This document shows, piece after piece, positions 44,256-63,728 of a DNA stretch of 64,000 nt. Position numbers and translations under genes: made by a program. Every line of letters begins with the position of its first letter. Positions within the stretch are counted from its first letter, which is position 1. The DNA is taken from the NCBI GenBank assembly GCA_963767735.1, contig CAVYES010000005.1, forward strand, positions 320,001 through 384,000. Reading direction: 5' to 3'. The notes under the pieces were generated by a model. The model was not told the DNA's origin. It did not search any database and saw only the letters and a list, made by a program, of their open reading frames with translations. Source of the stretch: Candidatus Bathyarchaeota archaeon. GTDB lineage: Archaea; Thermoproteota; Bathyarchaeia; Bathyarchaeales; Bathycorpusculaceae.

Positions 44256-44334
44256 GCAAACCCCAAATGCTTTGGAATGTCCGCTAATCTCTCAATTCTC
44301 TTTTTTTAGGAAAGGAGGCTTAATATTTTCAAAG

Positions 44335-44408
44335 TGGACTGGGGGGGATTTGAACCCCCGACCTCTTGAGTGCAAGTCAAGCGTTCATACCAGCTGAACT
44401 ACCAGCCC
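44335..44408 (-). tRNA. tRNA-Ala(UGC)
   Basis: GGGCTGG...CTTGA-CTTGCAC-TCAAG...GGGGGTTCAAATCCCCC CCAGTCCA cloverleaf; G3:U70 Ala identity pair. Confidence 0.97.
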
Positions 44409-63410: not shown

Positions 63411-63578
63411 GCCGGGGTAGCCTAGCCTGGCTAGGGCGCCAGACTCATAATCTGGTAAAAACACACAATCCAGATGAGAAATCTGGAGACTTAGGGGCTA
63501 AACGTCCAAAGCCAGAGGTCGCGGGCTCGAATCCCGCTCCAGAAACAGAATTAACGTCTGTTTCGGCGAACGGCACCA
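63411..63578 (+). tRNA. Elongator tRNA-Met(CAU) with three BHB introns (63450-63480, 63489-63517, 63541-63570) and encoded CCA
   Basis: Removing the three inserts gives GCCGGGG..CCAGA-CTCATAA-TCTGG-AGGTC-GCGGG-CTCGAAT-CCCGC-TCCCGGC-A-CCA. Confidence 0.88.
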
Positions 63579-63728
63579 ATTCGAGCCTAACTACCCACAA
63601 AATCGGCAAACCAAGCAAATTGATAACACCATTGATAACAAAACCGCAAAAATTGCTCGACCGCAAAAGCTAACAGTCGAAGACAGGAAAAATTTATTTT
63701 TCGCAATCTTAAATGAAGGTAGACAGCC

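Follow-up and report, generated by a model that had tools for sequence, protein, structure and literature searches.

A three-intron tRNA(CAU) gene of Bathyarchaeia with an intron in the 3′ strand of the acceptor stem and a probably trailer-assisted splice motif

Non-canonical and multiple bulge-helix-bulge (BHB) introns in tRNA genes have been described for Thermoproteales, Thaumarchaeota and others (Marck and Grosjean 2003 and Sugahara 2008, as cited in the accessible portions of PMC4090602 and PMC6379350). The non-canonical sites named in the accessible text of PMC4090602 include 45/46 and 59/60, with 3/4 being called an extreme case, and the same text describes pairing between leader and trailer in split and permuted tRNAs. 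The available part of PMC6379350 mentions BHB motifs in the acceptor stem as well as in the D and T loops, and acceptor-stem BHB introns are, as a class, already in print; a few acceptor-stem inserts in Asgard tRNAs also appear in the available part of a 2026 preprint. According to the accessible text of PMC8450103, candidates were extended by 60 nt for introns near the gene ends, and the search was iterated since some motifs become available only once another intron has been removed. In the accessible text of the literature searched, no statement was found on a 68/69 intron or on an outer helix built by a trailer, nor on an order of splicing first and 3′ maturation afterwards for an intron of the acceptor stem's 3′ strand. 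The gene described here, from a bathyarchaeal genome assembly (3.04 Mb, 10 contigs, 94.9% complete), belongs to the known kind of BHB-intron tRNA, at a rare intron position and with a proposed trailer-assisted splice motif as a probably new feature.

The gene occupies positions 63411-63578 on the forward strand of the window (the whole stretch of 64,000 nucleotides that was analysed), specifies a CAU anticodon and contains three BHB introns, at 37/38 (31 nt), 45/46 (29 nt) and 68/69 (30 nt). All three inserts form a central helix of 4 bp, with a 3-nt bulge on either side, that is continued by an intron stem. When each of the six sites is cut behind the second base of its bulge, the product is a 78-nt RNA that folds into a perfect cloverleaf with an encoded CCA and is scored by ARAGORN at 116.2 as tRNA-Met(cat), so that a canonical tRNA is restored by intron removal. 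An earlier note on this DNA had already proposed the three inserts with their BHB motifs and the exact cloverleaf after cutting; both are borne out by an independent search in which strict BHB candidates in the region were enumerated, up to three of them were spliced and the products were scored with ARAGORN. The best solution of this search consisted of exactly the same three introns, and the unspliced gene sequence, when scored by ARAGORN in the same search, gave no tRNA. The 168-nt RNA also folds better than all of 200 shuffled versions (z = −3.9). This three-intron tRNA gene is real and conserved, and it is almost certainly spliced.

Exon 1 (63411..63449; tRNA positions 1-37) comprises the 5′ strand of the acceptor stem, the D arm and the 5′ strand of the anticodon stem, includes the anticodon (63446-63448) and is identical in most orthologs; like all other features of the gene, it lies on the forward strand. 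In intron 1 (63450..63480), an intron stem (H2) of 5 bp is formed by TCTGG (63451-63455) and CCAGA (63470-63474), the central helix CTCA/TGAG has its TGAG partner at 63475-63478, the bulges fall at 63448-63450 and 63479-63481, and an outer helix (H1) of 5 bp completes the strict hBHBh′ motif. Exon 2 (63481..63488; ATCTGGAG) contributes tRNA positions 38-45 and is followed by intron 2 (63489..63517), whose central helix joins CTGG at 63483-63486 (tRNA 40-43) to CCAG at 63512-63515 and whose H2 has 3 bp (CTT, 63490-63492, with AAG, 63509-63511); an outer helix is absent. Exon 3 (63518..63540; tRNA 46-68) carries the variable loop, the T arm GCGGG-CTCGAAT-CCCGC and U66, C67 and C68. The BHB search places intron 3 at 63541..63570, with an H2 of 8 bp between GAAACAGA (63542-63549) and TCTGTTTC (63557-63564), a loop at 63550-63556, and a central helix CGCT/GGCG in which GGCG (63565-63568) pairs with tRNA 63-66 (63535-63538); its bulges lie at 63539-63541 and 63569-63571, and its H1 amounts to 2 bp alone and to 12 bp together with the trailer discussed below. 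Exon 4 (63571..63578; tRNA 69-76) supplies CGGC, the discriminator A73 and the encoded CCA. As the earlier note had remarked, the central helices of introns 2 and 3 thus borrow bases of the anticodon stem and the T stem, respectively. Since positions 40-43 are used by the BHBs of both intron 1 and intron 2, these two motifs cannot exist at the same time, and the precursor must therefore refold between these two cuts; of the ordered splicing with refolding that had been proposed, the refolding holds, and an order of splicing is not derivable.

The sequence itself appears secure. The region is found without any difference, intron 3 included, in DNA contigs of three runs from three studies, one of these runs being a possible source of the assembly, and this agreement argues that the sequence is not an assembly artefact. 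Parts of the stretch were found in 20 runs, one of them an RNA run, which placed nothing on the stretch and hence gives no verdict. When the three introns were compared with their own genome by blastn-short, nothing beyond chance was found, the best match being 15 nt long (E = 0.04), and there is therefore no sign of intron copying within the genome.

Orthologs were gathered from 60 relatives by DNA search and from species genomes by a scan with an exact pattern (at least 119 rows), which together gave at least 149 loci; among the matches listed, 140 were parsed, yielding 84 distinct genes, and nine were left unparsed as incomplete, N-containing or aberrant (L008, L043, L048, L057, L064, L118, L121, L125 and L130). 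Contigs with an identical 5′ exon come from Bathyarchaeia or Bathyarchaeota metagenome-assembled genomes (MAGs) of soil, peat and similar sources. In this set of matches, which is unbiased with regard to intron 3, the 45/46 intron is present in all 84 distinct orthologs (an insert at this site being required by the parse), the 37/38 intron in 11, an intron in the T loop, reading as 59/60, in 13, and the 68/69 intron in 2, namely this gene and L102. The T-loop intron is 16-26 nt long and has the central helix CTCG/CGAG (L017, L025, L045, L050, L072, L088, L089, L092, L095, L100, L101, L111 and L146); L111 combines the 37/38, 45/46 and T-loop introns. One orthologous gene thus displays four intron sites (37/38, 45/46, 59/60 and 68/69) in various combinations among close relatives, which makes it good material for a study of intron gain and loss. 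In another relative (L008/L118, genome G018; gene at about L008:1501-1575), the 5′ half is identical up to position 43 and the remainder is intron-free, with a different T arm (GAGGG-TTCAAAT-CCCTC), the 3′ strand TCTCGGC and no encoded CCA; this gene looks like a hybrid or recombined form in which the 45/46 intron, otherwise universal among the matches listed, has been lost. The gene was also encountered in MAGs that bear the names Acidoferrum, Sulfotelmatobacter, Methanocella, Bacteroidales and Limnocylindrales (L034, L045, L067, L082, L156 and L158), which probably contain mis-binned contigs of Bathyarchaeia.

For the intron in the 3′ strand of the acceptor stem, orthologs lacking it provide a direct view of the interrupted site: in these, exon 4 is contiguous with the preceding sequence and CCCGC(T/C)CC-CGGCACCA reads unbroken, which is precisely the junction predicted for the spliced product, and the 68/69 boundary is not shiftable. 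The position assigned in the earlier note is thereby upheld, and so is its rarity. A targeted pattern, in which 12-42 free bases separate the T arm and positions 66-68 from the last exon, recovered 10 loci in species genomes and 65 loci on metagenome contigs, 64 of the latter being this tRNA; the 75 loci were parsed into 60 distinct intron-plus-trailer versions, which grade from the type of this gene to a type with a GC-rich stem. Two loci were rejected as members of the family and left out of the counts, L220 as a chance match in GC-rich coding DNA and L150 as bacterial coding DNA. Within the order, the insert occurs in 9 of 401 genomes, all nine in one family (f1) and distributed over three genera (3 of 89 genomes in g1, this genome included, 2 of 3 in g31 and 4 of 5 in g60), and in none of the 153 genomes of other families. 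Such a patchy distribution would follow either from an old intron with many losses or from movement of the 3′ part of the gene between genera.

The third BHB is strongly conserved as a structure. In an alignment of 59 distinct sequences and 14 pairs (2 of the outer helix, 4 of the central helix and 8 of the intron stem), pairing is seen in 97.1% of 826 cells, compared with 31-46% when the partners are slid, and the central helix by itself pairs in 98.3% of its cells. Changes on both sides affect 7 of the 14 pairs (95 cells), and none of 500 shuffles reaches the observed pairing or covariation score, counts and p-values that overstate independence since the sequences are kin.

A second conserved element lies outside the gene. 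Shortly after the CCA, intron-3 genes carry a segment complementary to the 5′ strand of the T stem and the T loop; in this gene it is ATTCGAGCCT (63579..63588, forward strand), complementary to tRNA 51-60 (63523-63532). The rest of the long trailer (63589..63701, forward strand) runs without an oligo-T run until the first T4/T5 run at about +118 (63697-63701). As controls served 102 trailers of orthologs without a 68/69 intron, taken from among the matches listed. With positions 49-62, 43 of 55 distinct intron-bearing trailers and 11 of the 102 controls can form a contiguous helix of 7 bp or more, and 36 of 55 and 3 of 102, respectively, can form one of at least 8 bp; 6% of shuffled trailers reach 7 bp. 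The mean energy of the trailer duplex is −18.3 kcal/mol with the intron and −5.9 kcal/mol without it. Oligo-T runs are the usual archaeal terminator signal, and the first T4 run follows at a median distance of 86 nt in intron-bearing genes versus 13 nt in controls: only 1 of 54 trailers with the intron has such a run in its first 25 nt, and 57 of 102 trailers without it have one in their first 15 nt. Given the long stretch free of oligo-T, the complementary segment should be transcribed. In an alignment of the trailers that is anchored on the helix, fractions of 0.85-1.00 are paired at the positions facing 51-57, and the flanks show a consensus of 0.35-0.53, the anchor itself inflating the pairing nearby. 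Opposite G53, the consensus base is found in 0.75 of trailers and a pairing base in 1.00, C-to-T changes keeping the pair; two-sided covariation of this helix cannot be seen because the T-arm side never varies. The register of the trailer differs between subgroups (offsets of +1 and about +6), so that the outer helix does not have the same geometry throughout. Trailers also often contain 6 nt or more of complementarity to tRNA 1-14, irrespective of intron 3 (67 of 102 without it); as a candidate second trailer motif, suggested by the fold of the full-length precursor, this pairing was rejected because it is not enriched (at least 7 bp in 19 of 55 trailers with the intron and 29 of 102 without).

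Folding calculations connect the two elements. A fold constrained to contain the third BHB lies on average 1.13 kcal/mol above the minimum free energy (MFE) when the trailer is included and 2.42 kcal/mol above it when the trailer is omitted, and it comes within 1 kcal/mol of the MFE in 37 of 59 sequences with the trailer versus 1 of 59 without. For this gene, the constrained fold with trailer has −27.5 kcal/mol, as compared with an MFE of −28.5 kcal/mol, and features a 10-bp helix between tRNA 51-60 and the trailer, extended by C61-G71 and C62-G70, with C72-A76 (63574-63578) bulged out, together with the 4-bp central helix, both 3-nt bulges and the 8-bp intron stem. The helix between trailer and T arm is present in the MFE structure of the full precursor in every splicing state. 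A textbook BHB is seen in the unconstrained MFE of none of the 59 sequences, whether the trailer is included or not; in these models, the third BHB is a near-optimal alternative fold and not the predicted ground state. The third splice signal appears to be completed by RNA transcribed just 3′ of the gene. Pairing with the trailer would turn the third motif into a full hBHBh′, which implies that splicing would precede 3′ trimming.

These observations can be accommodated in a single pathway, which we consider likely: a functional, single-copy, elongator-type tRNA(CAU) would be spliced by the tRNA endonuclease EndA and the ligase RtcB, with the trailer supplying the outer helix of the third BHB and intron 3 being removed before trimming. 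The precursor would consist of the 168 nt and a long 3′ trailer. EndA would cut in the 3-nt bulges of the three BHBs and RtcB would ligate the exons, with refolding between the cuts of the introns at 37/38 and 45/46. For excision of intron 3, the 3′ strand of the T stem (63-66) would leave the T stem and pair with the 3′ end of the intron, and the freed 5′ strand of the T stem and the T loop (about 49-60) would pair with their complement in the trailer to form the outer helix, CACCA being looped out. Removal of intron 3 would accordingly precede both the trimming of the trailer and the folding of the T arm. We lean slightly towards the view that the 68/69 intron and the trailer represent one co-evolved unit, comprising an antisense copy of the 5′ half of the T arm, loss of the nearby terminator, and splicing ahead of T-arm and acceptor folding and of 3′ trimming.

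The enzymes for such a pathway are present. Two genes with an EndA domain (PF01974) were detected, one (C2:237-482) in which Tyr, His and Lys are kept and one (C4:496874-497128) with Thr at the place of the catalytic His of the Methanocaldococcus enzyme, as well as a gene for RtcB (C6:77176-78486). The best matches of the first EndA gene are crenarchaeal catalytic (alpha) subunits (2cv8, 3p1z_B, 3ajv_B and 2zyz_B), including an N-terminal segment which we take to be the crenarchaeal specific loop. Judged by these sequences, the genome encodes an EndA with the (alpha-beta)2 arrangement and RtcB. According to the accessible text of PMC6379350, the (alpha-beta)2 type is one of two that cut relaxed, non-canonical motifs. 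This breadth bears on the first alternative, in which the introns are spliced but the trailer has no role, EndA cutting a relaxed motif without any need for an outer helix; in that case, the motif in the trailer would be a leftover of shared descent or would serve another function, such as 3′-end processing, transcript stability or the downstream gene. Intron 2 dispenses with an outer helix and is nevertheless found in every distinct ortholog among the matches listed, so this EndA may not need one. The link to the trailer is also not absolute, as 12 of the 55 intron-bearing trailers fall short of 7 contiguous pairs and the 11 controls mentioned above attain them, and all carriers belong to one family. 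Yet the complement is conserved amid diverged flanks, its pairing survives the C-to-T changes, it goes together with the loss of the nearby oligo-T run, and most orthologs that lack the intron do not have it. A trailer without a role is therefore possible but doubtful, and a contribution of the trailer to the third splice motif is the reading retained here.

The identity of the tRNA requires a comparison with the other CAU genes of the genome. A survey based on 50 tRNA seeds (Rfam at E up to 1, plus ARAGORN) contains three CAU genes only: an initiator gene (C5:186288-186389), marked by A1:U72 and three G-C pairs in the anticodon stem, an intron-free gene (C7:104566-104642) and the gene studied here, which has G1-C72 and the anticodon stem CCAGA/TCTGG and is devoid of the initiator marks (A1:U72 and three G-C pairs at 29-31:39-41). 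In 213 of 217 archaeal genomes, one gene of each of the three CAU kinds was found, as far as the accessible text of PMC8450103 reports. From this near-universal rule and the presence of three CAU genes, it follows that the three-intron gene is the only candidate for either elongator tRNA-Met or tRNA-Ile2, the latter being a CAU tRNA that is later modified with agmatidine. The rule is equally compatible with the assignment of the three-intron gene to Ile2 and of the C7 gene to elongator Met, and the two genes share A73, G1-C72 and the same bases in the anticodon stem-loop. Against this assignment, the C7 gene is the more similar to the tRNA-Ile(GAU) of the same genome: it shares with it the D stem GCTC/GAGC and acceptor pairs 1, 2, 4 and 5 at an overall identity of 0.71, and tRNA-Ile(GAU) is not among the six closest relatives of the three-intron gene (the sixth having an identity of 0.69). 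In addition, archaeal Ile tRNAs usually begin with GGGCC and elongator Met tRNAs with GCCGGGG or GCCCGGG, typical sequences on which the preference for Met partly rests. An Ile2 identity thus seems unlikely, and the gene probably encodes elongator tRNA-Met. Of the earlier designation as tRNA-Met(CAU), the anticodon and the non-initiator character stand, and the choice of Met over Ile2 is favoured on weak grounds and not proven.

The same survey places the gene among other intron-rich tRNAs. No further intron in the 3′ acceptor strand was seen among the 50 seeds, five of which could not be resolved, and the only other three-intron parse (C9:23082; score 102.4) is weak and doubtful; the other resolved introns of the genome lie near 9/10, 29/30, 30/31, 37/38 and 53/54. 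Non-canonical BHB introns have to be assumed for six other tRNAs (C6:581970-582027, C4:561416-561489, C2:238584-238737, C4:295406-295510, C2:181626-181728 and C6:83681-83735), at about 9/10 in Arg(CCT) and Ser(TGA), at 30/31 plus 37/38 in Tyr, at 53/54 in Ala(GGC) and at 29/30 in two Gly tRNAs, and several such tRNAs are mislabelled when ARAGORN is used alone, for example Tyr as Arg and Gly as SeC or Trp. The five seeds that were not resolved by up to three strict BHB introns (C5:397205-397259, C7:287459-287512, C5:108648-108704, C2:15679-16057 and C5:21606-21726) could represent pieces of tRNA genes, remnants of attachment sites or genes whose motifs are relaxed.

An alternative parse of the anticodon region would merge introns 1 and 2 into a single insert, about 62 nt long and located in the variable region, and would let the first ATCTGG close the anticodon stem. 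It owes its appeal to a direct repeat, AATCTGG, through which both parses arrive at the same anticodon arm, and to the cmscan alignment with the Rfam tRNA model, in which introns 1 and 2 are merged into one long insertion after position 43. Most orthologs, however, lack the first 31 nt altogether and proceed directly from CTCATA to exon 2 (CTCATA-ATCTGGAG) and then to their own 45/46 intron. Moreover, the H2 of intron 1 covaries across 18 distinct versions (e.g., TCTGT/ACAGA and TCCCA/TGGGA), and the two-intron parse combines strict BHBs with the best score. In L003, the first copy reads ATCTGT, which would mispair with C27, and its intron partner changes to ACAGA. As ATCTGT could not close the anticodon stem, the parse as one long insert is regarded as ruled out, and we give the reading next to no credence.

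Scarcely conceivable is a decaying pseudogene with inserts that are never removed: although the only RNA run gave nothing on the stretch and scores from standard finders are low, the exons are perfectly conserved, compensatory changes are found in all intron helices, the architecture is common to 59 distinct sequences, and, in a genome that is 95% complete, one essential CAU tRNA has no candidate gene but this one. Self-splicing introns of group I or II, which are ribozymes of hundreds of nucleotides, are ruled out by the insert length of 29-31 nt and by Rfam searches, which find a tRNA only.

Standard finders miss the gene or shorten it. ARAGORN misses the unspliced gene in the window and also in intron mode on the whole genome, its only tRNA in the window being an ordinary, intron-free tRNA-Ala(TGC) on the reverse strand (44334-44408; 70.6 bits), and the Rfam tRNA model scores the gene at 29.1 bits, just at the cut-off, covering model positions 5-66 only. 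The earlier note's expectation that standard annotation would probably shorten the gene holds. An essential CAU tRNA gene that is invisible to common finders, or shortened by them, can make genomes of the group seem to be without it.

With this gene, the range of intron sites known from archaeal tRNAs comes to include the acceptor stem's 3′ strand, and it does so in Bathyarchaeia, a lineage that is abundant in soil and sediment and uncultured. If the proposed role of the trailer is true, the arrangement would contain a built-in order of processing for an intron in this strand, with splicing first and 3′ maturation after it. The link between trailer and intron suggests a rule by which an intron that borrows bases from two tRNA stems may survive, namely, that the flanking transcript serves as a surrogate strand; such a surrogate would, in turn, fix the order of processing.

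With the multiple BHB introns of archaeal tRNAs, the inserts of this gene share their small size, the two 3-nt bulges around a 4-bp helix, the limit of up to three per gene, the predicted cleavage by a broad-specificity (alpha-beta)2 EndA and, as far as the accessible text of PMC8450103 bears on the point, the need for refolding between neighbouring motifs. They differ in the 68/69 position within the 3′ acceptor strand, in the bathyarchaeal host and in the outer helix that would be built by the trailer. The use of sequence outside the mature tRNA for a helix of the splice motif is reminiscent of split and permuted tRNA genes as described in the accessible text of PMC4090602. In those systems, the outside sequence is removed by EndA, whereas the trailer of this gene would presumably be removed later by 3′ processing. 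Unlike split and permuted tRNA genes, the gene described here is contiguous, its intron lies in cis, and its trailer would pair not with a leader but with the 5′ half of its own T arm.
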